This document shows positions 1 to 54,740 of a stretch of 57,291 nucleotides of DNA, piece by piece. Position 1 is the first letter of the stretch. Each line of letters begins with the position of its first letter. A model generated the notes under the pieces. That model was not told the DNA's origin, ran no database searches, and saw only the letters and a list, made by a program, of their open reading frames with translations. This DNA comes from a virus (Duplodnaviria > Caudoviricetes): the IMG/VR virus record IMGVR_UViG_3300008954_000065, positions 1 through 57,291 of that record; one strand, 5' to 3'. The position numbers were made by a program, and so were the translations under genes.

Positions 1-105
1 CCAAGCGCGCGCCAAGCGCGCGCGGATTCCGCTGGTGGTCTGCATGATCCGGGCATGGTCCAATTCCCATAAAATTACCATGTGATCTTTTTTTTGGATC
101 TATTG

Positions 106-134
106 TTGACAGTCCTATTTCATGGGAGTACAGT
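106..134 (+). promoter_or_regulatory. Sigma70-type early promoter TTGACA-17bp-TACAGT with upstream T-tract
   Basis: TTGACA 106-111, 17-bp spacer, TACAGT 129-134; T-run upstream; precedes first ORF. Confidence 0.7.
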
Positions 135-175
135 GTTCTTATAGGGATTAACCTATAAAACACAAGGGGTTCGAT

Positions 176-403
176 ATGAAAAACGCAAAAGTAGTCTCTC
201 TTTTAAAGTTGCAGGTCCAAGAGCGAGTAACCCAATACTGCATTAAAAATAAACTTAATCGAGGCTCTCTTCTCGATTGGGAGTGGTTGATCGATGGGGA
301 TGGCGTATCCATGTCTTGCCTAGTTATTGCTTCAAGCGATTTTGCCATGGCTGGAAACGTTAAAACACTAACCTGCGTCAACGGTGTCATTGATATTCTA
401 TAA
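176..403 (+). CDS. Hypothetical early protein
   Basis: 75-aa ORF with AAGGGG RBS downstream of promoter. Confidence 0.65.
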   Translation: MKNAKVVSLLKLQVQERVTQYCIKNKLNRGSLLDWEWLIDGDGVSMSCLVIASSDFAMAGNVKTLTCVNGVIDIL

Positions 404-612
404 TTAAACCCCTGGGCCATTGGGCGCGCGCGATCCGGCGCGCGTCTGATGGTCTTTTTTTTAGCAGAAAGTTGGCTCTATTATGCAAGATTTTATCGAT
501 CTAATCCTATTTTCCACCGCTATTTCAGCGGCTTGGATCTGTCCTATTTTAAGCGCGCTACAATAGCGTTAAACAATAACCGGGGCTGCGGTCCCATTTC
601 AAGGGGTTCACT

Positions 613-1290
613 ATGCATCAAACTATTTACAACCAAGAAAGCGCTTGCGTGTGTCTCGATTCGCTGGCCGATAAATTTGAGCGATACGGTTACTCTGAAC
701 GCGCTATCGGCGCGGGGTTCGAGTCTCTATTCGTATATTGGGGTTTTGATCGGCTCTCACGGGATGCGCGGCGGCGCGCGTGGTCAGTCCTGGATCTAGT
801 TGCGGGGTTTCGCGGGCGCGGTGCTGACCCGGATGAGCACGATCAATTCGTCGGTTGGCTTGAGTGGCTTGCTAGTAAAACGCTAGATGATGACTTCGCC
901 AGCGATCACGGGTTTGATCACAACCCATGGCGCGGCTGCGAGTCAACGCGCGCGCGGATGTCGCGCGGTGGGGCTGATGACGCGGTCATAAGCGCAATTC
1001 TCGCTATCGCGTCAAGTGCGCGGGATGCGCTGCGGATCTGGTCTGAGCCTGGCGCGTATGAACGGCAATTAATCGCCGAATTAGTCGGAACGTTCGGATC
1101 GAATATCGGCGCGCGTGGCTCTGGTGGCGCGTCTTACGATTGGGCGCGCGGCGTGCGTTTGCAGGTCTCGTGCGGTTCTGACTCGTGCGGTCAAGTCGAA
1201 TGGGGCTGCCAGTTTTTTGAAGTGGGGCCTTTCATGCCCTACGGGAATTTGATCAGCGGGTGGCGCGTGATGATCGGGGGTGCGGTATGA
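613..1290 (+). CDS. Hypothetical early protein
   Basis: 225-aa ORF, CAAGGGGTT leader, stop overlaps next ATG (ATGA). Confidence 0.75.
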   Translation: MHQTIYNQESACVCLDSLADKFERYGYSERAIGAGFESLFVYWGFDRLSRDARRRAWSVLDLVAGFRGRGADPDEHDQFVGWLEWLASKTLDDDFASDHGFDHNPWRGCESTRARMSRGGADDAVISAILAIASSARDALRIWSEPGAYERQLIAELVGTFGSNIGARGSGGASYDWARGVRLQVSCGSDSCGQVEWGCQFFEVGPFMPYGNLISGWRVMIGGAV

Positions 1291-1547
1291 ACCGGGCGCA
1301 AAGTGAAGCGGTGTCCGCGGTTTTTCACCTGCTCAAAACACGGGCAATTAATCCTTCCGGCACGTTTGACCGCGCTGGGCGGTGGTATCCGATCGCGGCA
1401 AATTCGGACCTGGTCGACCACCTGCGCGCGCCGTCGCGCGCGTGGCCTTATTCGCTTCTGGCCGGGTGTCGCACGCGCAAATTCGTGGCGGCGATCGCGG
1501 CGCGGTCCGGTGTTGAAACGGTAGCCGGCCTTCGGGCGCTGGTTTAG
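1287..1547 (+). CDS. Conserved-looking phage hypothetical protein (GxFDxAGRWYP...RxPSRAWPYS motif)
   Basis: ATG 1287 coupled to upstream stop; motif recalled from small phage proteins. Confidence 0.7.
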   Translation: MNRAQSEAVSAVFHLLKTRAINPSGTFDRAGRWYPIAANSDLVDHLRAPSRAWPYSLLAGCRTRKFVAAIAARSGVETVAGLRALV

Positions 1548-1596
1548 TTTTTGGCCTTACGCGGGGATCGGCTCCCGCATTTGCAAGGGGTTGGTT

Positions 1597-1857
1597 ATGA
1601 AACGCACGTTTAAAGATGCTCAAGACTCGTTTTTTCAAAATTTGGGCCTGCTCGGTTGGTCGCGGTCGTCTCCATTTCTCAAAGTCCGGTGGGCCGAAAA
1701 AGGGCCTGTGCGCGTGTGGTTCAAGTCGCGGTCCGTCTATATCGGGTCAAGCGGACCCGGCGCGCGGCTGAGTGATGCGCGTTCGATGACTCATGACGCG
1801 GACCTGCGCGATATGCCGATGGGCCAATTTCTGGACATGATCGCGCGGTGGTCATAA
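1597..1857 (+). CDS. Hypothetical early protein
   Basis: ATG 1597 after CAAGGGGTT; TAATG coupling to next gene. Confidence 0.7.
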   Translation: MKRTFKDAQDSFFQNLGLLGWSRSSPFLKVRWAEKGPVRVWFKSRSVYIGSSGPGARLSDARSMTHDADLRDMPMGQFLDMIARWS

Positions 1858-2591
1858 TGCAGGGGCTCATACTTTATGAGGGCGCTAGCTATCTCGGTGA
1901 TCAGCAAATCGTGGTTATCGCTACGTTTAAATCCAGCAATGGCAAGACTGGGCCAATGGTCCAAATTTGGATCTTGGTGCGCGATATCTCACCGACGGAG
2001 GCTAGTGCGACCGGCGCGGACGTCTCCTGCTGCGGGGATTGCAAATTGCGACATTTCAACGGCGGGCCGTGTTATGTGGTGATCTTCCAGGGGCCTGGAT
2101 CGGTATGGGGCGCGTATGATCGAGGATCGTATCGCCATGCTACGGATCGCGATTGGCGGATGCTGCAAACGATGCGAAACCGCATCGGCGCGTACGGTGA
2201 TCCGGCGGCGGCTCCTCCATGGATCACAGTCGATCTAGGTCAAGGGCCCGGATCAGTGGGGTACACTCACCAGTGGCGCACGTGTGATCCGATTTTCGCC
2301 AATTTTCTAATGGCGTCGGTGGATTCGGTCGAAGAAATGCGCGAAGCGCACGCGATGGGCTGGCGCACGTTTCGGACGGGTTTCGACGGACCAATTCCGG
2401 GTTTAGAGGTTCGCTGCCCGCATAAAACAAAGGGAACCCTGTGTTATTCGTGCGGGCTGTGCGCTGGTAACCAAGTCGGCGCGAAATCAATCTATGAAGA
2501 ACTTCACGGAGCGCGCGCGGCGCGTTTCAAACCAAAACACGATTCGCGGCGGGCGCTGCGGGTTCTAGCAGGAAACGAGGCTACGGCATGA
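1857..2591 (+). CDS. Cys-rich Gp88-like (putative Fe-S/radical-SAM-fold) phage protein
   Basis: CCGDC..CYV, RIGAYGDP, GYTHQW, ASVD and C-terminal CxxCxxC motifs. Confidence 0.6.
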   Translation: MQGLILYEGASYLGDQQIVVIATFKSSNGKTGPMVQIWILVRDISPTEASATGADVSCCGDCKLRHFNGGPCYVVIFQGPGSVWGAYDRGSYRHATDRDWRMLQTMRNRIGAYGDPAAAPPWITVDLGQGPGSVGYTHQWRTCDPIFANFLMASVDSVEEMREAHAMGWRTFRTGFDGPIPGLEVRCPHKTKGTLCYSCGLCAGNQVGAKSIYEELHGARAARFKPKHDSRRALRVLAGNEATA

Positions 2592-2812
2592 AAGAAACAA
2601 ACAAAAATTCAATCCATTATGATCTGCAAGAGGCCAGCTCCTGGGCGGGTCGCGTCAAGTCAAGTCATCGGCTGCAAGCGTCCGATGTGGGCCGTGAGAT
2701 ATCCGAGTTTTGGGGATTCGGCGCGGTTCAATTGCGCGATGTGGGCGCGCAAGTGACCCTGGATCAGAATGGGGTTATCTGGCTAAGTCATCGAATCGAG
2801 GCGCGGCCATGA
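2588..2812 (+). CDS. Hypothetical protein
   Basis: ATGA-coupled to both neighbours. Confidence 0.65.
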   Translation: MKETNKNSIHYDLQEASSWAGRVKSSHRLQASDVGREISEFWGFGAVQLRDVGAQVTLDQNGVIWLSHRIEARP

Positions 2813-3033
2813 AATGCAAACGACTAACACTAGAACAAGCGCAAGGCCTTCTGAGAGTTGCGCTGGGCATTGACAAGCCGTGGTCTACAATGTTGCGCAA
2901 CGATTCAATTGATGTTGGCGCATCTAAGCTGATTAAAATGCAAGTTGAGCGGGTTGGTGAGTACGGCGGGGAAATGCGCTGGTTTCTAATCGGGCCCGTG
3001 CGTGATGTTCGCTACTGGTTTGAACTGGTTTAG
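2809..3033 (+). CDS. Hypothetical protein
   Basis: ATG 2809 overlapping upstream stop; GAGG RBS. Confidence 0.65.
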   Translation: MKCKRLTLEQAQGLLRVALGIDKPWSTMLRNDSIDVGASKLIKMQVERVGEYGGEMRWFLIGPVRDVRYWFELV

Positions 3034-3041
3034 GGGTCTAT

Positions 3042-3206
3042 ATGTCTAAACTAAGCGAGTTAGCAAAAGAGGCCGTCCGGCTAAATTGTGGGCTGGCAGA
3101 TCAACCGGCGGTCACCTGCGATCAATGCGGGCACGTTGGGCGCTGGCTATACGTGCCAGAGATGGAGAACGATTTCCCGCGGTGCCAGTGGTGCGGATCA
3201 TGCTAG
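3042..3206 (+). CDS. Small zinc-ribbon protein (54 aa; not in ORF track)
   Basis: MSKLSELAKEAVRLNCGLADQPAVTCDQCGHVGRWLYVPEMENDFPRCQWCGSC; AGGGG RBS; two CxxC pairs. Confidence 0.65.
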   Translation: MSKLSELAKEAVRLNCGLADQPAVTCDQCGHVGRWLYVPEMENDFPRCQWCGSC

Positions 3207-3358
3207 CGCTGCTGCTAGCGCTGCTGCTGGCGCTATGTGAAGGGATCGCGCGTGTGGGTGCGCGCGTCCACTTCGCGCTGGCGCGCGCGTTGGCCATCGG
3301 CTCACCGGCTGCGGCTGCGGGTGCGGACCTGCATTGCCTATTTTTTTGGAGTAATAAG

Positions 3359-3387
3359 TTGACCGGGGCAAGTCATCGGCGTAGTGT
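3359..3387 (+). promoter_or_regulatory. Sigma70-type promoter TTGACC-17bp-TAGTGT
   Basis: TTGACC 3359-3364, TAGTGT 3382-3387, upstream CCTA-T7 tract; same architecture as 8288-8316. Confidence 0.6.
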
Positions 3388-3439
3388 TGATCAACCGGGA
3401 TCAAATTTTTTTAGAGATCAAAATTTGACGGGTGACAGT

Positions 3440-3590
3440 GGCCAGCGAAGCGAAGCGAAACGAAGCAAGGCCAGCGAAGCAAAGCGAAACGAAGCAAAAA
3501 AGTCAATAAAAACGCGGGTGTGCGCGAAAAGCGCGGATGCGGGCGGGCGCGCGGGCGCGCGGGCGCGGGCGGGCGCGCGCGCGGGGCACC
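3440..3590. repeat. GCGAA/GCAAA 5-mer tandem repeats followed by a near-pure G/C (GGGCGC-like) tract
   Basis: GGCCAGCGAAGCGAAGCGAAACGAAGCAA-type unit twice (3440-3500); gcgggcgggcgcgcgggcgcgc... 3539-3588. Confidence 0.85.
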
Positions 3591-3613
3591 ATGACCCGAA
3601 TTCGGGACACAAG

Positions 3614-3729
3614 TTGCCGTACAGGATTGCCGTGCAGGATTGCCTCACAGGGTGCCTCACAGGAAAACCCCTCACAGGTTGCCGTACAGGATCACGATAA
3701 AAAACAGCGGCATAGGGTGCCGCACAGGA
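3614..3729 (+). repeat. Tandem ~13-bp direct repeats, consensus TTGCC(GT/TC/GC)ACAGGA, 7 copies
   Basis: Copies at 3614, 3627, 3640, 3653, ~3668 (partial), 3679, 3717. Confidence 0.9.
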
Positions 3730-3742
3730 TTGGAGCTAAAAA

Positions 3743-3997
3743 ATGAAAAACATTGAAGCCATGCCAGTTGAGTCCGTTCCGGTTTCGTCACTGTCGAAAT
3801 TGCCGGACGGCGTTTTGTGCGCCGAGGTGCCATGCACTGATTATTCTGCGCTGCAAAAGTTGCCGCACAGTCTGGAGGTATGCTGCCACTGGATGCGGGC
3901 GCGGGTCATCGTCACTCGCACGGGTTGGGATTCGGATCGGTGCGTTGCCTACTACAAAGACAACATCTTACACGCGCTCAGCGTAAGGGGAGCATGA
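3743..3997 (+). CDS. Hypothetical protein
   Basis: GGAG RBS, 84-aa ORF right after repeat block. Confidence 0.7.
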   Translation: MKNIEAMPVESVPVSSLSKLPDGVLCAEVPCTDYSALQKLPHSLEVCCHWMRARVIVTRTGWDSDRCVAYYKDNILHALSVRGA

Positions 3998-4065
3998 TAT
4001 GGAATTCACAACGATACGAGACGCGTCATTATTGCCGCAATCAACAAAAAAGAAAGGGTAGAACA

Positions 4066-4572
4066 ATGAAAAACCAAGAATTTGAGCTAACTACGTTCGA
4101 TCAAGACGCGACACCAGGATCCGATTTTCCAGATATTGCCGTACATAACCCGATCACGGGCAATTACATGTGGTTAGGCAGTAAACACGGCTTTATTGAT
4201 TTGTTCCACATTTGGAGCCCGGATCAAATGGTTGAGTGCATCATGCCCGACGATGAATTGTTGCGGGCTGAAATGTGGTTCAAAGGCGAATGCTCACATT
4301 TGATTGATGATTTTTCTATCGATTATGAGCGTTTATGTGTTGACATGGGATTGATCGATGGGCTGAACGATCTTGATCTTGATCAATGGTGTCAATCTCG
4401 TGAGACAGATCAAGCAATCGCAAAAGCGATTTTTGAATTGGCTACTGTTCCGAGTGAGGCCCAAGAAATTTGGGAATCGCCTTATTCGCTTGAGGAAAAA
4501 ATCGTCTCAAGAGCATTTGAGCTAACCGAAGAAAACAAATTGCAATGGGGCCAAGAATCCTACGAGCGATAA
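4066..4572 (+). CDS. Hypothetical acidic protein
   Basis: ATG 4066 after AAGGG RBS, within ORF 3880..4572. Confidence 0.7.
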   Translation: MKNQEFELTTFDQDATPGSDFPDIAVHNPITGNYMWLGSKHGFIDLFHIWSPDQMVECIMPDDELLRAEMWFKGECSHLIDDFSIDYERLCVDMGLIDGLNDLDLDQWCQSRETDQAIAKAIFELATVPSEAQEIWESPYSLEEKIVSRAFELTEENKLQWGQESYER

Positions 4573-4612
4573 AAAAAACGCGGTATTATTGCCGCATGGA
4601 AGGGATAAGACA

Positions 4613-4822
4613 ATGGAAAATTACAGATGTGAAAGATGTTGCAAGCCTTGCGACACGGGGATTGCCTGCGATCCTTGCGAGATAAAGACCATAAAATCAT
4701 TTCTTGAAAATGAATCTTGGCTTAAATATAGGGGTTCAGTTTTTTGCGATTATGAAAAAAAGACTCATAGGGAAATCTTTGAGTCCGAGCTGAAAATGCT
4801 TGAGCTATCAAGCCAACCGTGA
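4613..4822 (+). CDS. Small Cys-rich (zinc-binding) hypothetical protein
   Basis: ATG 4613; CERCC..C...CDPC. Confidence 0.65.
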   Translation: MENYRCERCCKPCDTGIACDPCEIKTIKSFLENESWLKYRGSVFCDYEKKTHREIFESELKMLELSSQP

Positions 4823-4861
4823 CCGCTCAAAAAACCAGATATTGCCGCATGGAGTAAGACA

Positions 4862-5113
4862 ATGGAAAACAAACGAAAAAAACTGAAGGCGCAAACACTT
4901 GAACGATATACTGCCGTACAGGCATGGAACGCCGTGCTTCTCCGGTCTGAGTCTTATCGCTATGAATGCGATGGGATTTACATAGACTGCGGCGAGCACT
5001 TTGAATTCTATGCCGGGCACCACGATTATGACCGTGCTGTCCGCGCGCTGATCGGCATGGGCGCAGTGGATTTCGACGGGAACAATTCTAGAAGCCTCCT
5101 TCATCTGATGTGA
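4862..5113 (+). CDS. Hypothetical protein
   Basis: GGAG RBS; leader nearly identical to that of the 4613 gene. Confidence 0.7.
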   Translation: MENKRKKLKAQTLERYTAVQAWNAVLLRSESYRYECDGIYIDCGEHFEFYAGHHDYDRAVRALIGMGAVDFDGNNSRSLLHLM

Positions 5114-5144
5114 GATCCCACAATAAGTTGCCGTACAGCCAGAA

Positions 5145-5369
5145 GTGCGATATGTCTTGGTTATGAAGCATCAGGGACCATGGCTAGAATACCGCACTGC
5201 TGGCATCGTTTGGAAGCGGCACAATTTCCTCCAAGCTCCAGGAACACAACTGGACGTGCCAAAACTAATTGAGCTTTTAGAGCATCTGCAAGCGGTAGAA
5301 GTCCGATTCGGAGAGATACATCTTCACCGGAACGATCTTCAATCGCCTTGGGAATCTGGCCAGCGTTGA
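5145..5369 (+). CDS. Hypothetical protein (uncertain)
   Basis: 74-aa ORF filling gap in rightward run; GTG start, weak RBS. Confidence 0.4.
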   Translation: MRYVLVMKHQGPWLEYRTAGIVWKRHNFLQAPGTQLDVPKLIELLEHLQAVEVRFGEIHLHRNDLQSPWESGQR

Positions 5370-6259
5370 CTGAATTCAATATATTTTCCGTACACAAAAA
5401 AACCTGCATTGCCAGGCGCGCTTTCATGCGCGCGATGGATGCGGTACGGTTCACGTTCCTGACCGGGTTCGTCATGCCTCCCGGTCTGGTCTGGGGTCAG
5501 CGGGAAATAAATATGGTGCTGAGAATGGTCGCCGATGAGTATGCCGCAGTTTACCATGATGGCCTATTGGTAGGATACGGCCAGCACTGGCACGGTGCAT
5601 TTACCCTGCACCGCATCTTTAAGCTGTGTAGGGTGGATCACTCCTATGAGATTCACTGCACATCCAAACCAGAATCCCTTGCATTGCTGCAAACATGCAC
5701 CACCGGGCATCTCACCGCACTGGAAAAGAAAACAAAGATTTCCGTGCAGATGCGCCAATATCCGAGCAATGAAAACCTGGTCAGTATGCTGGACACCTAC
5801 GAATATTTCCGCACATGGCACCGGGCAAATGCCCGCTGCTGGTGGATTTTCGACAGATATGTTGCCGTACAGGAATCGATTGACACTTTCAAGGAAATGG
5901 TGATTGCGCGAAACCAGGAACTTATTGATGCAGAGATGTCCAAAACTACGCGAGAAGAAAAAGAAACAGTACGCTTTCATGCAGTGAAATCAATAACGCG
6001 TCGAAGGCCATCAATCCTTCTTGATTTCGTAAGCATGTGCGACAACAACCCTTTAGACAAGACGTCTACAGAGTTTGAACACATCTTGAAATCAAATGCG
6101 ATCATCATTTCAGATGAAAACGAAAGACGAAAACGCATAAAGCACCGCGCATCCAAACGCGCGAAGAAATTGCGCAAAAGATCTCAGGACATTGGGGGCA
6201 AATCCAAGAGAAATATTCTTTCCCTGCTGAATGATTATTTTGGTGAACGTCCACTTTGA
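5348..6259 (+). CDS. Hypothetical protein (start uncertain), basic C-terminus
   Basis: 303-aa ORF. Confidence 0.65.
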   Translation: MGIWPALTEFNIFSVHKKTCIARRAFMRAMDAVRFTFLTGFVMPPGLVWGQREINMVLRMVADEYAAVYHDGLLVGYGQHWHGAFTLHRIFKLCRVDHSYEIHCTSKPESLALLQTCTTGHLTALEKKTKISVQMRQYPSNENLVSMLDTYEYFRTWHRANARCWWIFDRYVAVQESIDTFKEMVIARNQELIDAEMSKTTREEKETVRFHAVKSITRRRPSILLDFVSMCDNNPLDKTSTEFEHILKSNAIIISDENERRKRIKHRASKRAKKLRKRSQDIGGKSKRNILSLLNDYFGERPL

Positions 6260-6497
6260 TCTTGCAAGTGGGCTCCTACGACGCAAACGTATTTTGATGA
6301 CGAACAATAAAGAAACGATCTGCCCCGACTGCAACAATGATGGCTGGCACTTTTCAACCGTTGTCAGGCATGTCAAGAGAAGACAATCCGACGGACAACA
6401 GGCAATCAGATGCGAAGTCGATAAGATACGCGTCACCTGCGAATGCCCCCAGGGCGATCTGTGGATGGAGACACACGGGCTAAGGTTCATCGGCTAA
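6231..6497 (+). CDS. Small zinc-finger-like hypothetical protein
   Basis: CPDC...CECPQG; converges on loader gene; true start may be later. Confidence 0.45.
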   Translation: MIILVNVHFDLASGLLRRKRILMTNNKETICPDCNNDGWHFSTVVRHVKRRQSDGQQAIRCEVDKIRVTCECPQGDLWMETHGLRFIG

Positions 6498-7243
6498 CGC
6501 CTTGACTTGCCCTTCATTGTGACCCATCCTGAACCACACTTATCAACATATGCCCTTGTTCTATCGAGGATATCGTTCCCATATATTTTCGTGAACTCAT
6601 CTTTGCTCGATCTTGTGGTGATAATGGTAGGCAATCCTTTGTCATGGCGCTCGCACAAAATAGTGCTAACCACCCGGATACAGTTGGGGCTATCACCAGC
6701 GGTAGTTTGCGGAGCCACTTCATCTAGCACAACAACCCCCCGAATAGTCATCAAATCCCTGAGCAGTTCCCCGGATTCCCCAAAAGCAGTGATACCCATC
6801 CATTCAGACCGTGCCATGAAGCGACCATTGGACCTCCAAGCCGCATACGAAGCCGCTACCGTCTTACCCACCCCATTGGTCCCAGAAAGCACCAGAACGC
6901 CTCTCACGCGCGCTGAGACATACTTATCCATTGACTCCCCAAGTTTACCTCCAAGCTTGTTGTCTTGAGACTCCGGCGTAAGCCGGAGGGTTTTCACAAA
7001 ACTGTCAGACACGGCAATCTTCCTTATCCTTGCTTCAAAATCAGTTGACCTTTGCGAATCCGTCTCATTGGATTCCACAAAGTCCTTGATTGCCTTGTCA
7101 TTTTCAACAGCACACATCATGCAAAACGCCTCTCCGCGCTCAACCAAGAACGAAAAGTGCTCAGGTATCTTCGCAGTGCATGACGAACAGGGAACATCTT
7201 TGACCAGCCCGTAGCCGTTCTTTTCCAATGTGTTATTATTCAA
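6494..7243 (-). CDS. DnaC/IstB-like AAA+ helicase loader
   Basis: N-terminal CxxC..CxxC, Walker A GTNGVGKT, Walker B VVLDE, ER..K.LPTIITT; follows initiator-like gene. Confidence 0.85.
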   Translation of the reverse strand: MNNNTLEKNGYGLVKDVPCSSCTAKIPEHFSFLVERGEAFCMMCAVENDKAIKDFVESNETDSQRSTDFEARIRKIAVSDSFVKTLRLTPESQDNKLGGKLGESMDKYVSARVRGVLVLSGTNGVGKTVAASYAAWRSNGRFMARSEWMGITAFGESGELLRDLMTIRGVVVLDEVAPQTTAGDSPNCIRVVSTILCERHDKGLPTIITTRSSKDEFTKIYGNDILDRTRAYVDKCGSGWVTMKGKSRR

Positions 7244-7829
7244 AGGTTATATCCTCTCTGCCTGCTATCCAATCCGCTTCAGTTGCATATCCTTCATCGC
7301 GCCATGGCCCGTAGCCACCAGGCGCAGATGGGTTATCAGGCTCGCTGAAAAGAGCTACCCATTTGTCAAAATGTTTTGCGATGTGGGTGAAGGACCAGAA
7401 CCTGGGCCGGTCTTCCCAGGGGTCTTTTTTTATTCCGTGGATTGCTTGGATGATTTGGACCAGGGTGCGCCCCTCATCCAGCATTTCTTCAATCGCTTCT
7501 CTAGTTTTTTTGCTTTTGAATGAAACAGAAGAACCCAACACAGACCGATGACATTTGACCGCGACTGCCACCGCATCATTGACCGTTATGTCCGGGCATA
7601 GATCTGGATTGAGCAGCACGGATTTCCAATCCACGCTGCACGGTTCAGCCTCAGTTTCTTTTTGCTTTAGTTTTTTATTGTAATTAATAGAACTAATATA
7701 ATTAGTAGTTACACCATGGTTGTATATAACTAATTGTAACTCAGTAGTGCTATAGAATTTATAGTTAGCAGATTGACTTTTTTCTGTCAAATCATTTTTA
7801 AGTATCTGTTTTTGCTTTTCTTTTTCCAT
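7236..7829 (-). CDS. Replication initiator/replisome organiser, C-terminal part
   Basis: Upstream of DnaC-like loader; low-complexity N/Y/K-rich linker then helical domain (IIQAIHG...DPW); GGAGG RBS. Confidence 0.6.
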   Translation of the reverse strand: MEKEKQKQILKNDLTEKSQSANYKFYSTTELQLVIYNHGVTTNYISSINYNKKLKQKETEAEPCSVDWKSVLLNPDLCPDITVNDAVAVAVKCHRSVLGSSVSFKSKKTREAIEEMLDEGRTLVQIIQAIHGIKKDPWEDRPRFWSFTHIAKHFDKWVALFSEPDNPSAPGGYGPWRDEGYATEADWIAGREDITFE

Positions 7830-7876
7830 CTGTTCCCTCCGTTTTTCGGTTTTTTCCCATTTCTTTTTGTTCTTTT

Positions 7877-7992
7877 GCGTAAGGCCACGCCTTACGCTTT
7901 CGTTTTTTTGTAAGACTACCTCTTACGCTTTTGGCAACTTTGTAAGACTACACCTTACGCATTTTGCTTTTCTGTAAGACTACACCTTACGC
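7877..7992. repeat. Four palindromic iterons GTAAG-N7-CTTACGC (putative replication origin)
   Basis: GTAAG starts at 7879, 7910, 7942, 7974 (31/32/32-bp period), T-tract spacers, nearby AT-rich tract ~7660-7810. Confidence 0.8.
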
Positions 7993-8255
7993 TTCTTCGC
8001 CCGGTATGCGCGCATATATTTCGCTGGGTGACTATAAGATGCGGGCACCCTCCCATCCGCCAGTCCTGCTTGCTCCAGCATTTCTTGTGAGATCCATTCC
8101 GGCATGTGGACCTCTGCTTCAGCAGCGGCTGAAGACCAAATGGTGATCGCTACTCCCAGACATTCGTGATGCGTGTGTCCGGTGATTTCAGCCAGCGCTA
8201 AAACGCGGGGGTCCGATATGGCATCCAGGGACAACCTTAACTGTTTCAGTGACAT
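7980..8255 (-). CDS. Replication initiator N-terminal-like domain (91 aa)
   Basis: LSLDAISDPRVLALAE...LGVAITIW resembles N-termini of phage replisome organisers; GGAG RBS; stop lies in iteron 4. Confidence 0.55.
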   Translation of the reverse strand: MSLKQLRLSLDAISDPRVLALAEITGHTHHECLGVAITIWSSAAAEAEVHMPEWISQEMLEQAGLADGRVPASYSHPAKYMRAYRAKKRKV

Positions 8256-10087: not shown

Positions 10088-11011
10088 ATGAAAAGACTAG
10101 AAGGAATAGGCGGAACAGATGTGGGATGCTTGCTGGGAGTAGGGTTCAAGAGCCCCTATGAGCTTTGGGAGGAAAAGACTGGGCGCGGGAAGGAATTTTC
10201 CATGAACGAAGCGATGCGCTGGGGGGTGGCACTGGAAGACGTTTTGCGCGTTCGATACGCGGAAGAGACCGGGCACAAGGTTGATACAATCGAGCCTGTT
10301 CGCCACCCGAAACATGAATGGTGGGTAGGTTCGCCCGATGGGGTAACGCCAGACCGTGTGCTGGAGATAAAAACTGCACGATTCCAGGGAGATGACTGGG
10401 GAAATCCGGGCACAGATCAAGTGCCAATGGGCTATTATTGCCAGGTACAGTGGTACATGGCAGCCCTATCCCTCAACAAAGCCGACATTGCCGTGCTTTT
10501 TTCCGGCCAGGACTTCGCCATTTATCATATCGAAAGAGATGACAAGTGCCTAAAAAGCCTGTATAAAAAAGCTAAGAACTTCTGGGAGAAAAATGTCAAG
10601 GAAGACATACCACCAGAGGAAATGTCAGCGAAAGAGCAACAGCGGTATCTCGGCATAAAATACCCGAATGATGACGGTGAAATAAAGGTTGTGGGAAATG
10701 ACGACTCTGATATGAAAGAAGCAGAGGCAATGGAATCCCTACTGTACATCAAGAAGGAGATAGAGGCTCTCAAGGAAAGAAAGGAAGAGATAGAGGCTGA
10801 GATAAAATCTTCGATTGGGCCAAATAAGGGTATGCAATCAGACCTTTATCGGGCCACATGGACCCCGCAAACGAGAAAAACAATGGACCAGAGTCGCTTT
10901 AAGGCCATGGTTGCTGATGAAATAGGGTCCAAAAGAGCCCAGGAGATGATCGAAAAATGCAAGAAGGAAAACAGCTACAGAGTCTTGAGACTGACGGAGC
11001 GAAAACAATAG
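10088..11011 (+). CDS. YqaJ-like viral recombinase / lambda-type exonuclease
   Basis: GIGGTD, SPYELWEEKTG, SPDG, LEIKT, YYCQVQWYM motifs. Confidence 0.93.
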   Translation: MKRLEGIGGTDVGCLLGVGFKSPYELWEEKTGRGKEFSMNEAMRWGVALEDVLRVRYAEETGHKVDTIEPVRHPKHEWWVGSPDGVTPDRVLEIKTARFQGDDWGNPGTDQVPMGYYCQVQWYMAALSLNKADIAVLFSGQDFAIYHIERDDKCLKSLYKKAKNFWEKNVKEDIPPEEMSAKEQQRYLGIKYPNDDGEIKVVGNDDSDMKEAEAMESLLYIKKEIEALKERKEEIEAEIKSSIGPNKGMQSDLYRATWTPQTRKTMDQSRFKAMVADEIGSKRAQEMIEKCKKENSYRVLRLTERKQ

Positions 11012-11034
11012 AGGCAGAAAAGAAGGAGGGAAAA

Positions 11035-11691
11035 ATGGTTGTTTCAGGAAAGCAAATGCAAAAGGTGAACATCAGCGAAAATGGTGTCCAGTTATCAGAC
11101 TTGGACTCATTGCAGAGATTCTGCAAAATGGCCCACGCATCCGGGTTTTTCGGGTCCAGGGCTACGGGAGAAGCGCTCATTCGAGAGCTGGCCCAGGCAG
11201 CAGTCAAGGTGGAATACGGCCTAGAGATTGGGCTAAAGCCCATCTCAGCGCTCATGAATGTCTATACCGTGGATGGGAAACCTAGCCTATCCAGCGGGGC
11301 AATCGGCGGCCTCATCCGAAAATCAGGCAAATACACGTATACAGTCAGCTCGACCGATCAACAATGCACCATTGAATGGTTCGAGCGATATAACGGCCAG
11401 CGAGAGCCCCTGGGGCAGTCTTCATTCAACATGGAAGACGCCAAGAAGGCAGGTCTCTCAGGCAGAAACCCATGGAAGAGATACCCAAAGGCAATGCTAT
11501 TCGCCCGCGCTTTGACGCAGGGCGCAAGGATGTTTTGCCAGGATATCTTCCTGGGCGCAGTCTACACGCCAGAAGAACTCTCGGACGGAAAGATGACAGA
11601 AGACGATTTCGAGGGAGATGTTGAACGGCAGGTGGAGGCCACAGTTGTTGGCAGTCCATCAGATTTATTTGGAGACGACGATGACGATTGA
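11035..11691 (+). CDS. RecT/Red-beta-like single-strand annealing protein
   Basis: Follows exonuclease; GLEIGL.P..AL.NVY.VDGKP, W.RYPKAMLFARA, YTPEE; acidic tail. Confidence 0.8.
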   Translation: MVVSGKQMQKVNISENGVQLSDLDSLQRFCKMAHASGFFGSRATGEALIRELAQAAVKVEYGLEIGLKPISALMNVYTVDGKPSLSSGAIGGLIRKSGKYTYTVSSTDQQCTIEWFERYNGQREPLGQSSFNMEDAKKAGLSGRNPWKRYPKAMLFARALTQGARMFCQDIFLGAVYTPEELSDGKMTEDDFEGDVERQVEATVVGSPSDLFGDDDDD

Positions 11692-12613: not shown

Positions 12614-13031
12614 GCGAGAGTTCATAGAGGTCATAACAGACTTTATCGAGTTTCAGGATGCACCAATCGAGCATCAAGAGGAGGTAAAAAAAAGAACAAA
12701 CGAAAAGAAAAACGGCAGGCATGTAATACCAGTCTCAACAGTGAGAACCATGCTTAGAAAAATGGACAAGTTTGGGCACATCAAATGGCTCGAAGATATA
12801 TTTAAAGAAAGGATGCAAGCGGAACTTGGGGATTTCACCCCAGGAAAACCTGGTCCGACTCCACCGTCGCCAGGAGACATGAAAACATATTCGATACTAA
12901 CAGACACCAAAGGTAGGTCTTTTGCAAGAATACCTACGTGTACGCTTGGACTGGATGACGGGGAAAAGATTCTCGTTGAGTTTAGGTCTTCGCGTATAAT
13001 CATCACACCACAAAAGGAGATAGAGTCATGA
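12534..13031 (+). CDS. Hypothetical protein, possible C-terminal AbrB-like DNA-binding domain
   Basis: RIP...LGL.DGEKILVEF....IIITP pattern. Confidence 0.5.
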   Translation: MKSRQKEKLKLERSKKRPAYLKRSRVEREFIEVITDFIEFQDAPIEHQEEVKKRTNEKKNGRHVIPVSTVRTMLRKMDKFGHIKWLEDIFKERMQAELGDFTPGKPGPTPPSPGDMKTYSILTDTKGRSFARIPTCTLGLDDGEKILVEFRSSRIIITPQKEIES

Positions 13032-13420
13032 ATACATTTTTCTTAAGCGGTCGCCTAGGGGCTGACCCTGAAGTTAAGTTCACCAAGGGTGGTCTCGCCA
13101 TCACAACCATCAGCATTGCCAATAATCGACGCGTCAAAAAGGACGATGCGTGGGAGGATAAGACAGACTGGTTTAGGATAAAGTTCTTCGGAAAGAAGGG
13201 CGAGGTGGTGGGAGAGCATTTCTCTAAAGGGAAATACATCAACACATGGGGCCGCATTGAGCCATTCTCATACGAAAAGGATGACGGACAGAAGGTGTAC
13301 GGACATGACTTCTGCGCCAACGATTTTGACTTTGTTGACAAGAAGGGAGAGGGGGGCGGCGAAGCTGCACCCAAGGCTCGCTCAACATCTTCCGCCGATG
13401 CGGATGAACTTCCATTTTAG
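13028..13420 (+). CDS. ssb: Single-stranded DNA-binding protein
   Basis: MN...GRLGADPE, W..KTDWF, KG, C-terminal DELPF. Confidence 0.95.
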   Translation: MNTFFLSGRLGADPEVKFTKGGLAITTISIANNRRVKKDDAWEDKTDWFRIKFFGKKGEVVGEHFSKGKYINTWGRIEPFSYEKDDGQKVYGHDFCANDFDFVDKKGEGGGEAAPKARSTSSADADELPF

Positions 13421-13427
13421 GTGAACC

Positions 13428-13862
13428 ATGAGCAGCGTTAAGATAAAAATAAAGCCGCTCAGAGAAGACTGTAAGCTACCCGAGCGTAAGACCTCGGGGG
13501 CTTCCTGTCTGGACCTGTATGCTTGCATGGATGTAACCATGTATCCGAATGACACAAGAATCATAAGAACAGGGTTCGCCCTGGAGCTGCCTCCCGGTGT
13601 CGAAGGACAGATAAGGCCCCGCTCAGGGTTGGCTTCCAGGGGTATTGCCGCACACTTCGGAACGATTGACTCAGACTATCGCGGCGAAGTCAAAGTTATC
13701 CTCATAAATATGAGCAAGAAGAAACACGAGATTAGATCCGGGGACAGGATTGCGCAGCTTGCAATAAACTCCACCGTGACAGACAAGCTGGTGTTCCTTG
13801 TGACCGAGTGCTTAAGCGAAACGAAGAGGGGAGAAAAAGGGTTTGGCTCAACAGGAGACTAA
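13428..13862 (+). CDS. dut: Trimeric dUTPase
   Basis: PRSGLA, GTIDSDYRGE, GDRIAQL, RGEKGFGSTG motifs. Confidence 0.97.
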   Translation: MSSVKIKIKPLREDCKLPERKTSGASCLDLYACMDVTMYPNDTRIIRTGFALELPPGVEGQIRPRSGLASRGIAAHFGTIDSDYRGEVKVILINMSKKKHEIRSGDRIAQLAINSTVTDKLVFLVTECLSETKRGEKGFGSTGD

Positions 13863-13882
13863 TACGGAAGATTGGCGACGGG

Positions 13883-14083
13883 ATGGACGACTACGAGGCT
13901 ATCAAAAAACTGATAATAGAGACCCTGTACTCAAGGGAGCTGTCAAAAACTCCAGAGGAAGAGAGAGATAACTGCGCATCAGTAATAAGGTCCATGAACC
14001 TGGAAGAGATAAAGAAAACAATAAGGGTGCGGAAAAATGCAGGAGAGACTGTTCCTAGGGATTGTGACAAAGATAAAATATAA
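13883..14083 (+). CDS. Hypothetical protein
   Basis: ORF in operon, ATG 13883. Confidence 0.55.
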   Translation: MDDYEAIKKLIIETLYSRELSKTPEEERDNCASVIRSMNLEEIKKTIRVRKNAGETVPRDCDKDKI

Positions 14084-14099
14084 TATAGACGGAGGCACC

Positions 14100-14348
14100 A
14101 TGGGCACCCGCATGGTGCTGTGGGTAAAGCCGGTATACGGAAGTGCAAAGAACAACCTGGTCGCGCCAGGAGGCAAGACTGCCCCGTTTCCCGTAGAGAT
14201 AAACGAGAGGCTTACCATCAAACACATAAAGAATATAGAAGTGGGAGACCTGCTGGAGATAAAAAGCCTTTACAAGATAAAGCCGAACAAGGACAGCATT
14301 GTCATTTTTGAAATAAACAAAAAGAGGTTACCTTCACATGAAAAATAA
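14100..14348 (+). CDS. Hypothetical protein
   Basis: GGAGG RBS, ATG 14100. Confidence 0.65.
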   Translation: MGTRMVLWVKPVYGSAKNNLVAPGGKTAPFPVEINERLTIKHIKNIEVGDLLEIKSLYKIKPNKDSIVIFEINKKRLPSHEK

Positions 14349-14520
14349 AAAATGGCAGCACGACGGAGCATTCTGTCAAGAGCTTATAAAAAAAGAATAC
14401 GCAAAAAGAAACAAGAAGGGCGGGCTTGACCCGGTTGTGTCAGATGGACTTATAATCTATATGTGGGAAATGTTTAAAGCGGGAATCATGCACGAAAAAA
14501 ACATGGGCGAAAAAAGATGA
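14338..14520 (+). CDS. Hypothetical protein
   Basis: GAGG RBS, coupled to neighbours. Confidence 0.6.
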   Translation: MKNKKWQHDGAFCQELIKKEYAKRNKKGGLDPVVSDGLIIYMWEMFKAGIMHEKNMGEKR

Positions 14521-14834
14521 ATACCAGGGCATTTCTTGGCGCAATATTTAACCGTGTGCAAAGAGACAGGGAGATAAAGTTCTCCGGCGTCAGGGTTGAG
14601 TGTGGCTCCTGGTTTTCTGCTTACCAGTACGTGTATGAGACAGACCCGCTAACAGGCAAAGACGTGACAGACTTCTCAACAGAGATGAAATCGATGGAAG
14701 ATGTTGAATGCAACGAGGACGGTGAAGGAAAAGTTGTATTCACAATAAAGAAAGAGATAGTGAATAGGATCAAAGGGGATCAAAATGGAAAAATGGAATC
14801 TGGAACAGAAAAAGCTCGCGAGGGCACTGCTTAG
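14517..14834 (+). CDS. Hypothetical protein
   Basis: ATGA coupling. Confidence 0.65.
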   Translation: MNTRAFLGAIFNRVQRDREIKFSGVRVECGSWFSAYQYVYETDPLTGKDVTDFSTEMKSMEDVECNEDGEGKVVFTIKKEIVNRIKGDQNGKMESGTEKAREGTA

Positions 14835-15132
14835 TTATCCTGACTTGGTAAAAAAGGCCGTGTTAGCTCTCGATGTAATGCCCAAGACATTGAACGAGGA
14901 GCTTCGTACATTTATCGCCCAACTGGCAATCCTGGTAGACAAATACCCGGATGACCTGGGCAAGGCCCTGATGCAGACACCTGTGAAGCGCAACGGTGTG
15001 CTGGCCTACATATTCTATGAGGTACACGGAACAAAGAAGAGAGAAGATTTCAATGTCCAGATAGACAGATGGGATTGCGATCAAGTTGTGAACGATTTCC
15101 TAAAGAAGCGCTTTGTGAAAAAGGAAAAGTGA
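14785..15132 (+). CDS. Hypothetical protein
   Basis: AAGGGG RBS. Confidence 0.65.
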   Translation: MEKWNLEQKKLARALLSYPDLVKKAVLALDVMPKTLNEELRTFIAQLAILVDKYPDDLGKALMQTPVKRNGVLAYIFYEVHGTKKREDFNVQIDRWDCDQVVNDFLKKRFVKKEK

Positions 15133-15188
15133 TGAATCACAAAAAGAAAGAAGACACCATTCATTAGTGGTGGAGGTAAGGGGTACAT

Positions 15189-16007
15189 ATGGACAAGGGA
15201 AAGACGCTCGCCAAGGAAGAGATTTACGGTGACCTCGACGCGCTGTTTGAGAAGGCGACGACGAGAACCTGGGAAAACAGTACGGTCTGCCCGGAAACGC
15301 GAAAGTGGAGTATAAGAAACAGCAAGGAACATTTCCTAATAGATATGGAGAGAAAGATAGGAGGCATGCGCCGCGAGTTGGCACTCGAAGCCATTAAGAG
15401 CCGTGGGTATAAAATGTTTTCCAGCGAAGATTCTTTGAGTTCATGGCTTGAGGAAAACATAAGCAGCAATTTTCATGTCATACCGGAGGTTTGGGGAAAG
15501 CACACGCCGACTGGGAAAAACATAAGAATAGATTTCATACTGTACCCCAGGGAGCACCTGGTCAAGGCTGGTTTTATAGAGAAACCGTTTGGCGTCGAAG
15601 TGAAACACTTTGACCTTATGAACACCAAGGGGCAGGTAAAGAAAATAAGAAAGACATTGAGGCAGTCTCAAACATATCAAGAATCTATATACTCCAGGTC
15701 TGGAAGAAAATTTTCTACCGCGTTTACATTAATTTTCTCAAACTTATCGTTTATCCGCGAAAGAAGATTTGCGTTTGACTGTAACAGCGAACTTAAACCG
15801 GCCTACAAGGCAATGATGTGCTCGTTAAGGTATTCGATGGTGGGCGAGTTGATCATACCGGGCTACGTGCCGGACACAGACGGTTGGAAAATTTCTTTTT
15901 CTGGCCAGGTCTGGGCATCGTGTGGCGATGGCCGCTCCCCTGACGGGGCCTCCTTTAGCCCTGTAAACGATATCTTTAAAGCGCCCCTGAAGGTGGGGTC
16001 ACTGTAA
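15189..16007 (+). CDS. Hypothetical protein, putative PD-(D/E)XK nuclease fold
   Basis: E...RIDFIL...FGVEVK and Q..Y spacing. Confidence 0.5.
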   Translation: MDKGKTLAKEEIYGDLDALFEKATTRTWENSTVCPETRKWSIRNSKEHFLIDMERKIGGMRRELALEAIKSRGYKMFSSEDSLSSWLEENISSNFHVIPEVWGKHTPTGKNIRIDFILYPREHLVKAGFIEKPFGVEVKHFDLMNTKGQVKKIRKTLRQSQTYQESIYSRSGRKFSTAFTLIFSNLSFIRERRFAFDCNSELKPAYKAMMCSLRYSMVGELIIPGYVPDTDGWKISFSGQVWASCGDGRSPDGASFSPVNDIFKAPLKVGSL

Positions 16008-16031
16008 GCATAAAAATAAAAGGGAACGGCA

Positions 16032-17897: not shown

Positions 17898-18228
17898 AAC
17901 AAAGAGCGATTATGATTACTGGGCGGACTACAAAAAAGAAGTCCAGGAAGGCATCAAAAAAATGATCGATGAAAGCGATGGCCGGGAGGTTGGGCCTGAT
18001 GAGCAGTTAATGCTCCAGGGCTATACCGAGTGGAAACTGGATACGGATACGGTCCAATCAGGGCTGCGGATTCCAATCTTTATGCTGCGTCAACTTCATG
18101 AAATGCGACCCTGGCTGATGCAAGAACCGGAGCTTTACGGAAGGCCACCAACGAACGCCGAGATGATTCGTGTGGCCCTTGCCGTGGGGGTTCTACACCT
18201 AAAAAGAAGAATGAAGGAGGTGACCTAA
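17881..18228 (+). CDS. Hypothetical protein, possible ribbon-helix-helix-like C-terminus
   Basis: Last rightward gene; GLRIP..ML..L...AEMIRVAL. Confidence 0.6.
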   Translation: MRMMTKTKSDYDYWADYKKEVQEGIKKMIDESDGREVGPDEQLMLQGYTEWKLDTDTVQSGLRIPIFMLRQLHEMRPWLMQEPELYGRPPTNAEMIRVALAVGVLHLKRRMKEVT

Positions 18229-53910: not shown

Positions 53911-54192
53911 ATGACACCTTGGATATCATTACTGCTCAGTGCCGGGACAAGCTTACTTTTGTTTGGCGCAGCCTACGGGACGCTTTTGGCCCGCTCGAAA
54001 CAGAACTCTACCCTAATCAAGGAGGCAGCAGAAAGCATGAAAGAGCATGTTCAAGAAATCAAGCAAACAAAGGCATCAAATGAGCGCATGGATGCTTTTG
54101 CTGACCGGATAGACCGGCTAGAGGAAGGGATGAACCAAAAGTTTGAAGAACTGAAAGAATCGATCAAGGAGCTGTCAAGGCGCAGTCTTTGA
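53911..54192 (+). CDS. Membrane-anchored coiled-coil protein
   Basis: N-terminal TM helix followed by heptad-rich helix. Confidence 0.6.
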   Translation: MTPWISLLLSAGTSLLLFGAAYGTLLARSKQNSTLIKEAAESMKEHVQEIKQTKASNERMDAFADRIDRLEEGMNQKFEELKESIKELSRRSL

Positions 54193-54209
54193 GAAAGGTA
54201 TAAAGGGGC

Positions 54210-54740
54210 ATGACAGAGAACTTAGGTAAGTATGGGCGTTTGCAACGTCGCATTGAGATAACCGAACCACAAATCGAAGAGCTGGTCCGCGCATTGCGGG
54301 CTGGCAATCGGATGCAGACTGCTTGCGAGCTTGCTGGTGTCCAGCATAGGACTGTTGCTGGATTGCAGCGAGAGGCATCAAAAGCAGCAGTTGAGCATGA
54401 AAATGGCCGTTTGACGCGCCATGAAGAAGAAATCTTAGATATTGACCGGCGTTTGCGCAGGGCCATGGCTGAAGCTGAGGGTCGTGCGGTCAACACTATT
54501 GCCCGTGCTGTTGCGGAAAACGACTGGCGGGCTGGCGCTTGGTTCCTTCAATACGCTCGCGGCTGGACAAAGATGGACGTTCAGGTCAGTACGGACGCAA
54601 CGCAGGTTGGCGGATCTTGGGCGGCCACCTTGAAGCAGGCGTTATTGGGTGAAGGCAGCGGAGAAAAGGTGCCAGAAAAATCTGATGACGAAACTTCTGA
54701 AATCATAGAAGCGGAAGTCTTGACAAAGGTTGAATCATGA
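54210..54740 (+). CDS. Putative terminase small subunit-like HTH protein
   Basis: L.AGN...ACELAGV HTH; A.AEAE..DWRAGAWFL motif typical of TerS-like proteins. Confidence 0.6.
   Translation: MTENLGKYGRLQRRIEITEPQIEELVRALRAGNRMQTACELAGVQHRTVAGLQREASKAAVEHENGRLTRHEEEILDIDRRLRRAMAEAEGRAVNTIARAVAENDWRAGAWFLQYARGWTKMDVQVSTDATQVGGSWAATLKQALLGEGSGEKVPEKSDDETSEIIEAEVLTKVES

Follow-up and report, generated by a model that had tools for sequence, protein, structure and literature searches.

The window analysed in this study is the whole virus record IMGVR_UViG_3300008954_000065, a single contig of 57,291 nucleotides (nt). Its first 3742 nt, here referred to as the leader, differ from the other 53.5 kb by an extreme excess of alternating CG runs, by a codon usage of their own and by their richness in short palindromes. 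The leader is probably, with considerable room for doubt, a mosaic, high-turnover early accessory module that stems from a separate gene pool. For comparison we used a sister phage from another sample (contig IMGVR_UViG_3300025770_000070, L053) and three distant relatives (G001, G002 and G003).

Word counts were compared between positions 1-3730 and 15 other bins, 14 of equal size and a last one of 1341 nt. The first bin contained 96 CGCG, 99 GCGC, 28 GCGCGC, 42 GATC and 25 AATT, compared with 5-21, 8-23, 0-4, 0-21 and 0-20 per other bin, respectively. Expressed per kb for 1-3742 and the remaining sequence, the difference was about 10-fold for CGCG (25.7 vs 2.6) and likewise for GCGC, about 60-fold for GCGCGC (7.5 vs 0.13) and about 4-fold each for GATC (11.2 vs 2.6) and AATT (6.7 vs 1.8). 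Windows of 3730 nt starting after 3742 reached a maximum of 22 CGCG and 22 GATC, and 28 of the 35 GCGCGC sites of the genome were located at or before 3577. These bin counts and rates bear out a first-pass annotation, made from the letters only, which had described the first ~3.6 kb as rich in CGCG/GCGCGC and GATC. Even its rough hand counts of GATC were exact (41 in 1-3600 and 13 in 13001-18000), and the CGCG skew fades at ~4.0 kb, thus after a repeat block as it had stated.

Compared with the expectation from base composition, the leader was enriched 4.3x in CGCG, 16x in GCGCGC, 67x in CGCGCGCG and 2.9x in GATC. The core of this enrichment is alternating CG, since CGCGC, CGCGCG and CGCGCGC exceeded their body frequency by 22x, 80x and 107x, respectively. 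The word CGCGCGCG was found at 8 places between 404 and 3742 and once within 1-38, and was absent from the remaining 53.5 kb. The relative abundance of CpG was 1.36 in the leader and 0.92 in the body, that of GpC 1.35 and 1.08. The dinucleotide distance delta* to the genome was 160 for the leader, compared with 63.9 +/- 14.4 (maximum 88.7) for 27 other windows. As a separate observation, the 6-mers GGATCC, GGCGCC and CTGCAG were absent from 1-3742 despite the enrichment in GATC and GCGC (pooled over both strands 0 each vs 5.2, 6.9 and 3.1 expected).

The genes of the leader also use other codons. AGA/AGG made up 1% of their arginine codons compared with 45% elsewhere, and GCG 59% of their alanine codons compared with 23%; ACG, TCG and CCG were preferred likewise. 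tRNA genes, sought as an explanation of this split, were not found in the window. In 1000 rounds of synonymous shuffling, keeping the amino acids and the codon usage of the leader constant, the observed 64 CGCG (39.3 +/- 4.4 shuffled) and 65 GCGC (37.5 +/- 4.3) were not reached once, and the excess of AATT was kept (19 vs 9.7 +/- 2.1). GATC reached a z-score of only 1.6 (30 vs 25.4 +/- 2.9), so its excess in the window is explained by the leader's own codon usage. The concern that the skew might vanish after correction for GC content or codon usage is thereby refuted for CGCG, GCGC and AATT. In the sister leader the same test gave GATC beyond codon usage (z 3.2) together with GCGC (z 3.2) and CpG (z 3.6). 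The starts of both CG words were spread evenly over the three codon positions (CGCG 20/20/24, GCGC 21/23/21), and both words were present in non-coding DNA as well. As a negative control, 15 large body genes showed deficits instead (GATC 74 vs 129.6, AATT 45 vs 95.5, CGCG 73 vs 102.5). The dialect of the leader is a signature of the module at the level of DNA and does not result from its protein composition.

Perfect palindromes of 6, 8 and 10 nt occurred at 29.7, 8.8 and 2.1 per kb in the leader and at 8.3, 2.1 and 0.45 per kb in the rest, which is about twice the random expectation in the leader and about half of it in the body. Restriction-site avoidance, one of the purposes originally proposed for the leader, is contradicted by this result, since first-entering DNA that is exposed to restriction should be poor in palindromes. 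Leader palindromes of 8 nt other than (CG)n were about as frequent as expected. Alternating purine-pyrimidine tracts of at least 10 nt were 5x denser in the leader (2.4 vs 0.49 per kb), with a single tract reaching 12 nt. The five 4-mer palindromes most shunned by the body (AATT, GATC, CGCG, CATG and TGCA) had values above 1 in both leader alleles (10 of 10 values). Over all palindromic 4-mers the profile of the leader was anti-correlated with that of the body (Spearman -0.53, p 0.03, n 16); the sister leader gave -0.32, which is not significant, and all 10 body windows were positive. Within the structural arm (18000-57000) GATC and AATT were found at about half of their expectation and were also low compared with synonymous shuffles. 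The same avoidance was found in three relatives (L057, L058 and L059), and the word counts suggest a long exposure of this arm to enzymes cutting these words.

The genome is composed of two arms. Small genes, a YqaJ-like exonuclease, a RecT-like protein and a helicase are encoded on the + strand between 176 and 17897. Long open reading frames (ORFs) on the - strand (18258-56756) encode an amidase, tail and capsid proteins, the portal, the large terminase subunit (TerL), a ParB_N-methyltransferase fusion and an exonuclease, and five short + strand ORFs lie within this arm at 53911-55593. Both arms diverge at the point where the contig is cut, here called the junction. The features of the leader and its borders, with lengths of proteins in amino acids (aa), were as follows.

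56992-57291, no strand assigned: other half of the divergent intergenic control region, with a 28-nt repeat, a G6CATC6 palindrome and T-rich repeats
1-38, + strand: last unit of a CG-rich tandem array (CCAAGCGCGCG twice, then CGGATTCCGCTGGTGG; Tandem Repeats Finder 1-23, period 11), the contig break
84-109, + strand: two GATC-led T-rich 13-mers (GATCTTTTTTTTG and GATCTATTGTTGA), overlapping the -35 box of the promoter
106-134, + strand: sigma70-like promoter TTGACA-17-TACAGT, 10/12 consensus matches
176-403, + strand: g1, 75 aa, an AT-richer cassette free of CGCG; an unrelated 122-aa gene in the sister
414-455, + strand: intrinsic-terminator-like hairpin of (CG)n runs, followed by T8
613-1290, + strand: g2, 225 aa, near-ORFan (almost without known relatives), highest CGCG density (35 per kb), ratio of nonsynonymous to synonymous divergence (dN/dS) 0.18
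1287-1547, + strand: g3, 86 aa, ATGA overlap with g2; not in the sister
1523-1544: terminator-like site after g3
1597-1857, + strand: g4, 86 aa, 56% aa identity to the sister, dN/dS 0.27
1857-2591, + strand: g5, 244 aa, phrog_2554, DUF7227/GP88-like, seven invariant cysteines, dN/dS 0.09
2588-2812, + strand: g6, 74 aa, ATGA overlap with g5
2809-3033, + strand: g7, 74 aa; not in the sister
3042-3206, + strand: g8, 54 aa, CxxC...CxxC, zinc-ribbon-like by eye; not in the sister
3207-3742, + strand: non-coding repeat block of 536 bp directly before g9
3201-3234: 12-nt repeat
~3337-3435: conserved core with three GATCAA
3440-3497: 29-nt unit, two copies
3531-3585: (GCGCGCGG)n stretch
3614-3730, + strand: six TTGCCGTACAGGA-like units of 12-13 nt just upstream of g9
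3743-3997, + strand: g9, 84 aa, first gene past the boundary, 88% identity to the sister; composition heads back to normal

Because g1 contains no CGCG, the island proper comprises ~404-3742 together with the array at 1-38. The genes g2 to g8 are coupled by ATGA/TAATG overlaps or short spacers, and the initiation context CAAGGGGTT...ATG recurs. Compared with the sister, dN/dS was 0.09-0.27 in the four comparable leader genes, which indicates purifying selection. Based on this and on the coupling overlaps, the leader genes are real. The description of the segment as having its own sigma70 promoter and only small genes without assigned function agrees with our data (106-134; eight genes). A scan of 10 proteins (g1-g8, g9 and g10) with PHROGs and Pfam yielded only phrog_2554, which has no function assigned, and a YccJ-like domain; seven of the eight leader genes, with products of 54-244 aa, obtained no family. 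Past the boundary, a 168-aa protein (4066-4572, + strand) matches the YccJ-like family PF13993 with its C-terminal 64 residues (E 1.5e-10), and the sister carries an unrelated 75-aa gene in its place.

For g2 the predicted fold was too poor for a structure search (mean predicted local distance difference test score, pLDDT, 57.8), and an Atlas features search of this protein returned scores of at most 0.81, which is chance level. A 2471-aa immunoglobulin/leucine-rich-repeat (Ig/LRR) protein, P0004, matched g2 residues 112-188 in nine stretches; this looks compositional and was rejected. The alignment of g5 with 32 of 53 available homologues contained the seven invariant cysteines, and its model was confident (pLDDT 90.6). 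With this model Foldseek found no match in the PDB at E <=0.001, and BFVD returned DUF7227 and GP88-like phage proteins, again without assigned function. In a wide VIA search nine of the ten top rows were radical S-adenosylmethionine (radical-SAM) enzymes, but with Z <=4.1 and thus below the noise level of the tool. The predicted structure of g5 may therefore resemble radical-SAM enzymes, if weakly.

The leader is the fast-changing part of an otherwise closely related pair of genomes. Identity to the sister was 93-95% in the flanks and 69-89% in those stretches of the leader that BLAST could align, with much of the leader unalignable. Counted by aligned stretch, the allelic module of the sister spans 61-89%. 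Synonymous divergence (dS) was 0.69-2.8 in the leader genes compared with 0.34-0.42 in the next genes outside, and the leader as a whole diverges 3-5 times as much as its flanks. The sister has another gene in place of g1, lacks g3, g7 and g8 and possesses two additional small genes; the terminator region 395-491 is duplicated there on both sides of an extra gene. Two clean cassette breakpoints were found, both at microhomologies of ribosome-binding site (RBS) and ATG, and the (CG)n runs were therefore discarded as recombination microhomology. The sister leader keeps the dialect, with CpG at 1.25-1.54, 0-1 AGR vs 5-19 CGN arginine codons, and fewer CGCG. The two leader alleles are not independent samples. 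With its own dialect, its own promoter and this divergence, the leader is a separately evolving segment, as the first-pass annotation had supposed.

G001 and G003 carried no homologue of the module, and G002 a 53% homologue of g5 at another location. Compared with their structural bodies, the junction-proximal accessory DNA of all three relatives held 2.6-4.4x GATC, 3.5-4.2x AATT and 1.8-3.4x CGCG per kb, a milder form of the skew. Since three relatives show it, the relaxed avoidance in accessory DNA is clade-wide, even without homology. Scans of viral and metagenome sequences with g5 and g2 for further leader alleles returned the sister only, and for P0003 no viral contig was found. A conserved 25-mer of the repeat block matched the sister only. 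The promoter 17-mer matched four contigs which share no other similarity, so these matches were regarded as chance and discarded.

At its right side the leader closes with the repeat block. An ORF of 204 aa (3086-3700) crosses it; however, the indels against the sister (11, 2, 8, 10, 10 and 13 nt) are non-triplet, which rules out this ORF as a gene and shows the block to be non-coding. Allowing at most one mismatch, the TTGCCGTACAGGA-like motif occurs 11 times in the window, always on the + strand and between 3614 and 12426. The copies of TTGCCGYACAGG are located at 3614-3730, 3860, 4911, 5128, 5862, 12153 and 12426, thus in the early arm only. The sister contains nine copies compared with 0.27 expected (L053 12314-20488), and G001 four compared with 0.10 expected (L078 2642-4782) in a left arm that is otherwise unrelated. 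In G001 the cluster lies directly in the divergent control region, without a leader in between. As judged from this distribution, the motif is a lineage-conserved cis-signal of the early arm, and to that extent the repeat block forms a genuine boundary. The proposal that the repeats delimit the segment is thus upheld, with the island ending at a conserved non-coding block at 3.2-3.7 kb.

The TTGCCGYACAGG motif may act as promoter, operator or RNA-level signal. In sequence, its unit is similar to the CsrA-binding consensus. A structured RNA or CsrB-like sponge in the motif array is no more than a bare lead (fold z-score -0.04, no Rfam match); the whole window had no Rfam match at gathering score, and 1-6000 gave a single chance-level row at E <=5. 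Considered as an iteron-type origin, the block has six direct repeats of 12-13 nt and T-rich and GATC-rich stretches, with no DnaA boxes and no recognised initiator. The dispersal of the motif on the + strand along the left arm would fit a transcription signal better than such an origin.

Taken together, these results are most consistent with an accessory module that forms the promoter-proximal, hyper-variable part of the rightward arm (early/replication) in a tailed marine phage of ~57 kb. The module begins in the divergent control region between the arms with the CG-rich tandem array and the sigma70-like promoter, continues with eight small genes, mostly ORFans and mostly translationally coupled, and closes at the 536-bp block, where the array of 12-13-nt motifs marks the start of the next unit. 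The module would be expressed immediate-early by the host RNA polymerase, and its proteins may serve in host takeover or anti-defence. The dialect consists of (CG)n runs, an excess of CpG and GpC, almost no AGA/AGG and no palindrome avoidance. Its most likely cause is a separate gene pool of rapid exchange, in which the cassettes circulate and from which they enter the backbone in swaps when conserved promoter, terminator and RBS sequences recombine. Coming from such a pool, they would have escaped the restriction-driven avoidance of GATC, AATT and CGCG seen in the conserved body.

Several findings weigh against a mosaic module of this origin. Neither a donor nor a pool was found: viral contigs, metagenome contigs and protein collections, when searched, returned only the sister and relatives at <=53%, of which the nearest are poor in CGCG, so a recent insert with a matching donor is not borne out either. 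Among billions of proteins g2 had only the sister (78%) and one relative at 35-38%. Beyond the sister, g5 homologues reached at most 53%, and the next closest (44-46%) were located in CGCG-poor contigs. Simple inheritance from a high-GC donor is insufficient, since the leader with 26 CGCG per kb at 56% GC matches or exceeds phage loci of 63-71% GC that carry g5 homologues (9-23, whole locus). Both alleles retain the dialect after a dS of ~0.7-1. In g2, 14 CGCG sites are specific for the window and six for the sister, which looks like turnover with maintenance rather than decay. Furthermore, the anti-correlation of palindromes between leader and body hints at selection, beyond a mere absence of selection. 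The cause of the (CG)n saturation, its strength and its persistence remain unexplained by a separate pool.

These points lend some weight to a different explanation, which we regard as possible at a distinctly lower probability, namely that selection acting directly on the DNA or RNA maintains the (CG)n runs and the short palindromes. They may serve as a sink or decoy for host nucleases or methyltransferases directed at the words shunned by the body, form a structure-prone tract (Z-DNA or cruciform), or provide an early tract that is GC-rich and counteracts silencing. We assign it this weight because of the missing donor, the density of the words, their persistence after a dS of ~1 and the mirrored palindrome profile. 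Codon usage does not account for the whole word excess, which appears in every codon phase alike. Despite the divergence at synonymous sites the sister allele has the same sign (z 3.2-3.6 for GCGC, GATC and CpG), and the palindromes shunned by the body exceed 1 in both leaders, with a significant negative rank correlation for the window and a non-significant one for the sister. These values above 1 are the sole hint of the decoy or methylation-target loading put forward in the first-pass annotation. The denser alternating tracts point the same way; long Z-prone tracts are absent, however, with only one tract reaching 12 nt. Individual CGCG sites are not conserved beyond background: for g2, 10 of 24 positions are shared with the sister and for g5, 2 of 13, which does not exceed the fourth power of nucleotide identity (~0.4). 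A cut within a 'decoy' in cis would still break the genome, the distant relatives manage without the module, and the two leaders count as non-independent. To our knowledge there is no binding protein or modification for the words of the leader.

A stronger form of this idea, which we judge rather improbable, is that the leader is an actively maintained device in which early genes are loaded with the words that the body purges (GATC, AATT, CGCG, CATG, TGCA and (CG)n). Such a device may provide a sink or loading platform for host nucleases or methyltransferases, or for the phage's own ParB-domain methyltransferase, with the Chi-bearing array at the junction and the motif array as its borders.

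An effect of position is unlikely. Here, the control region next to the module would contain an origin of replication or a hot spot of recombination, and a local mutational bias, for example from GC-biased repair during frequent recombination, would drive the composition. In agreement with this, CGCG falls off with distance from the junction (96, 21, 14 and 8 in successive 3.73-kb bins), although g1 at the very start is free of it. The milder skew in junction-proximal DNA of the three relatives points in the same direction; the g5 homologue of G002, however, keeps its raised CGCG and GATC at a different position. The GATC-led T-rich 13-mers, which resemble the unwinding-element repeats of oriC, the iterons and the GATC clusters at both edges of the leader would suit an origin, but no DnaA boxes were found there and no initiator gene was identified. 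Cumulative GC skew rises up to ~18 kb and then falls, and the orientation of the GCTGGTGG octamer switches with it at the junction and at ~18 kb; gene orientation alone explains the pattern of the skew. GC-biased conversion, finally, predicts neither alternating CG runs nor an excess of AATT.

The octamer GCTGGTGG, presumably the Chi sequence of the E. coli type, is a finding in its own right. It occurs 12 times in the window compared with 1.96 expected, a number reached in none of 100 shuffles (31-38, 5838, 25438, 30349, 33017, 35310, 35648, 47318, 47741, 51624, 51923 and 55748). Nine copies point in the same direction as the genes of the arm in which they lie, and one is part of the junction-array unit.

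Slightly less probable still is the T5-like staged entry proposed by the first-pass annotation, or a T7-type leader, in which the array would be the physical left end of the genome, the leader would be injected and expressed ahead of all other DNA and the repeat block would be the stop or boundary signal. Depth, bridging and ends were analysed on assembled contigs (Logan) of four sequencing runs, all from one marine-metagenome study, in which the sequence is present. In all four runs contigs end within 1-38. Breaks at the same array in every assembly could also stem from a physical end; however, the sister contig reads unbroken from the right end of the window into its left end (L053 8400-9060), so that the region 56992-57291 leads on into the array and the promoter. 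One contig of 68 nt goes on with CCAAGCGCGCG past position 38, which shows the 38-nt unit to be repeated. At the junction of the sister a 53-nt unit is present in 4.5 copies, and another sister-type contig ends within this array. The window contig has no terminal repeat or overlap of its ends and is classed as linear in IMG/VR. In G001 (56,891 nt) 135 nt at the start match the end at 99.3%, so that it assembles as a circle, and it is cut elsewhere, inside a gene. On the evidence of these contigs the 'left end' of the window is an assembly break inside a tandem array, and none of them shows a physical terminus at position 1. As an aside, G001 (L078 1-148 and the end of L079) is likewise classed as linear despite its circular assembly; because of this assembly the CheckV completeness of 73% probably underestimates this clade.

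A strong sigma70-like promoter less than 140 nt from the contig end, followed by only small function-unassigned genes and closed by a repeat-rich non-coding block, nevertheless speaks for a first-entering segment. The promoter region (41-182) is 89% identical in the sister. Promoter-like sites in 1-6000 numbered seven, which is not above shuffles (5.5 +/- 2.5). Against entry in stages stand the lack of any pre-early or anti-restriction family match among the 10 scanned proteins and the enrichment, rather than avoidance, of palindromes. None of the four TTWTNCACA sites of the genome (DnaA boxes) falls into 1-3742, and a search for long inverted repeats in the leader found none, the longest having arms of 24 nt at 71%. 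The T7-type RNA polymerase family PF00940 had no match in the genome, with control genomes equally silent.

A misjoin of foreign DNA to the phage contig end, suggested by the extreme composition there and by breaks of short-read contigs at 1-38, ~1351-1474 and ~3543-3586, is very improbable, since the order on both sides recurs in an independent contig, which comes from another sample, and single contigs in three of the four runs bridge the boundary (1351-8000, 1653-6760 and 2220-5239) at similar depth (8-10x in run X1).

Outside the leader, the YqaJ-like exonuclease is followed by the weakly matching RecT-like protein (10088-11691, + strand), and the phage therefore seems to be equipped with a recombination pair of its own. 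A gene at 52040-53599 (- strand), directly upstream of the large terminase, encodes an N6/N4 DNA methyltransferase to which a ParB N-terminal domain is fused. In the left arm a 32-nt tandem repeat of 2.8 copies lies in a stretch of 38% GC (7907-7994), adjoined by three - strand genes (6494-8255), one of them with a weak AAA ATPase match. No tyrosine integrase was found in the genome, and no near-identical phage record was found. The best TerL relative (37%, a Methanosarcinales virus) is not syntenic and was set aside. A search for the host with the capsid gene against 185,579 species genomes gave one match of 38% in a metagenome-assembled genome of Bryobacteraceae, which is uninformative.

Compared with known systems, several features of the leader recur elsewhere. 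T5 injects a pre-early segment that ends in a repeat- and palindrome-rich injection-stop signal, and the first-step-transfer region of T5 likewise is a left block of small early genes with a long non-coding end rich in direct repeats. According to a preprint, the T5 block lies inside a ~10-kb terminal repeat, requires A1/A2 and contains 131-bp inverted repeats with paired DnaA boxes (10.1101/866236). The leader differs by having no terminal repeat, no recognised homologues of A1/A2 or dmp and neither large inverted repeats nor DnaA boxes. In the class I early region of T7 host-polymerase promoters are located at the entering end and an anti-restriction gene comes first. Here, too, small genes and terminators come after a host promoter that is consensus-like and lies near the start of the sequence; however, the leader has no mapped terminus and no recognisable Ocr-like protein, and it is rich in restriction-type palindromes. 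A contig end of odd composition is easily mistaken for a physical end with a function in entry, a reading that fails in this case.

Early and late phage genes have been reported to differ in codon usage (BMC Genomics 2017, PMC5683454). This is in line with leader genes near the early promoter using another codon set than the structural genes, whereas the word counts of the leader go beyond synonymous shuffles. The dialect is also not simply 'host-optimal', because the major capsid gene, presumably the one with the highest late expression, shuns AGR (0 vs 25 CGN) without using GCG. Avoidance of restriction-site palindromes by phage genomes is likewise described (BMC Genomics 2018, PMC6286503). 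The 53-kb body, with GATC and AATT at about half of their expectation, conforms to this, while the leader is exempt and even enriched. Thus two opposite regimes of word usage coexist in one 57-kb phage, with the body purging GATC, AATT and CGCG and a swap-prone early module accumulating them.

The leader most resembles the mosaic accessory early regions of tailed phages. There, too, small and mostly ORFan genes follow right behind the early promoter, gene content varies between near-identical genomes with breakpoints at regulatory or RBS sequences, divergence exceeds that of the flanks and composition is atypical. In a literature search covering listings and the openings of abstracts, no description of such a skew with reversed palindrome sign was found. 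Should gene-pool history alone lie behind the contrast, composition would provide an easy way to mark high-turnover accessory regions, as candidates for anti-defence, in uncultured phages. A selected contrast would instead indicate a DNA-level interaction, not described so far, between early phage DNA and host enzymes. What distinguishes the leader from other mosaic early regions are its (CG)n hexamers to octamers at 50-500x the body frequency in all codon phases, and a palindrome bias opposite in sign to the rest of its genome.

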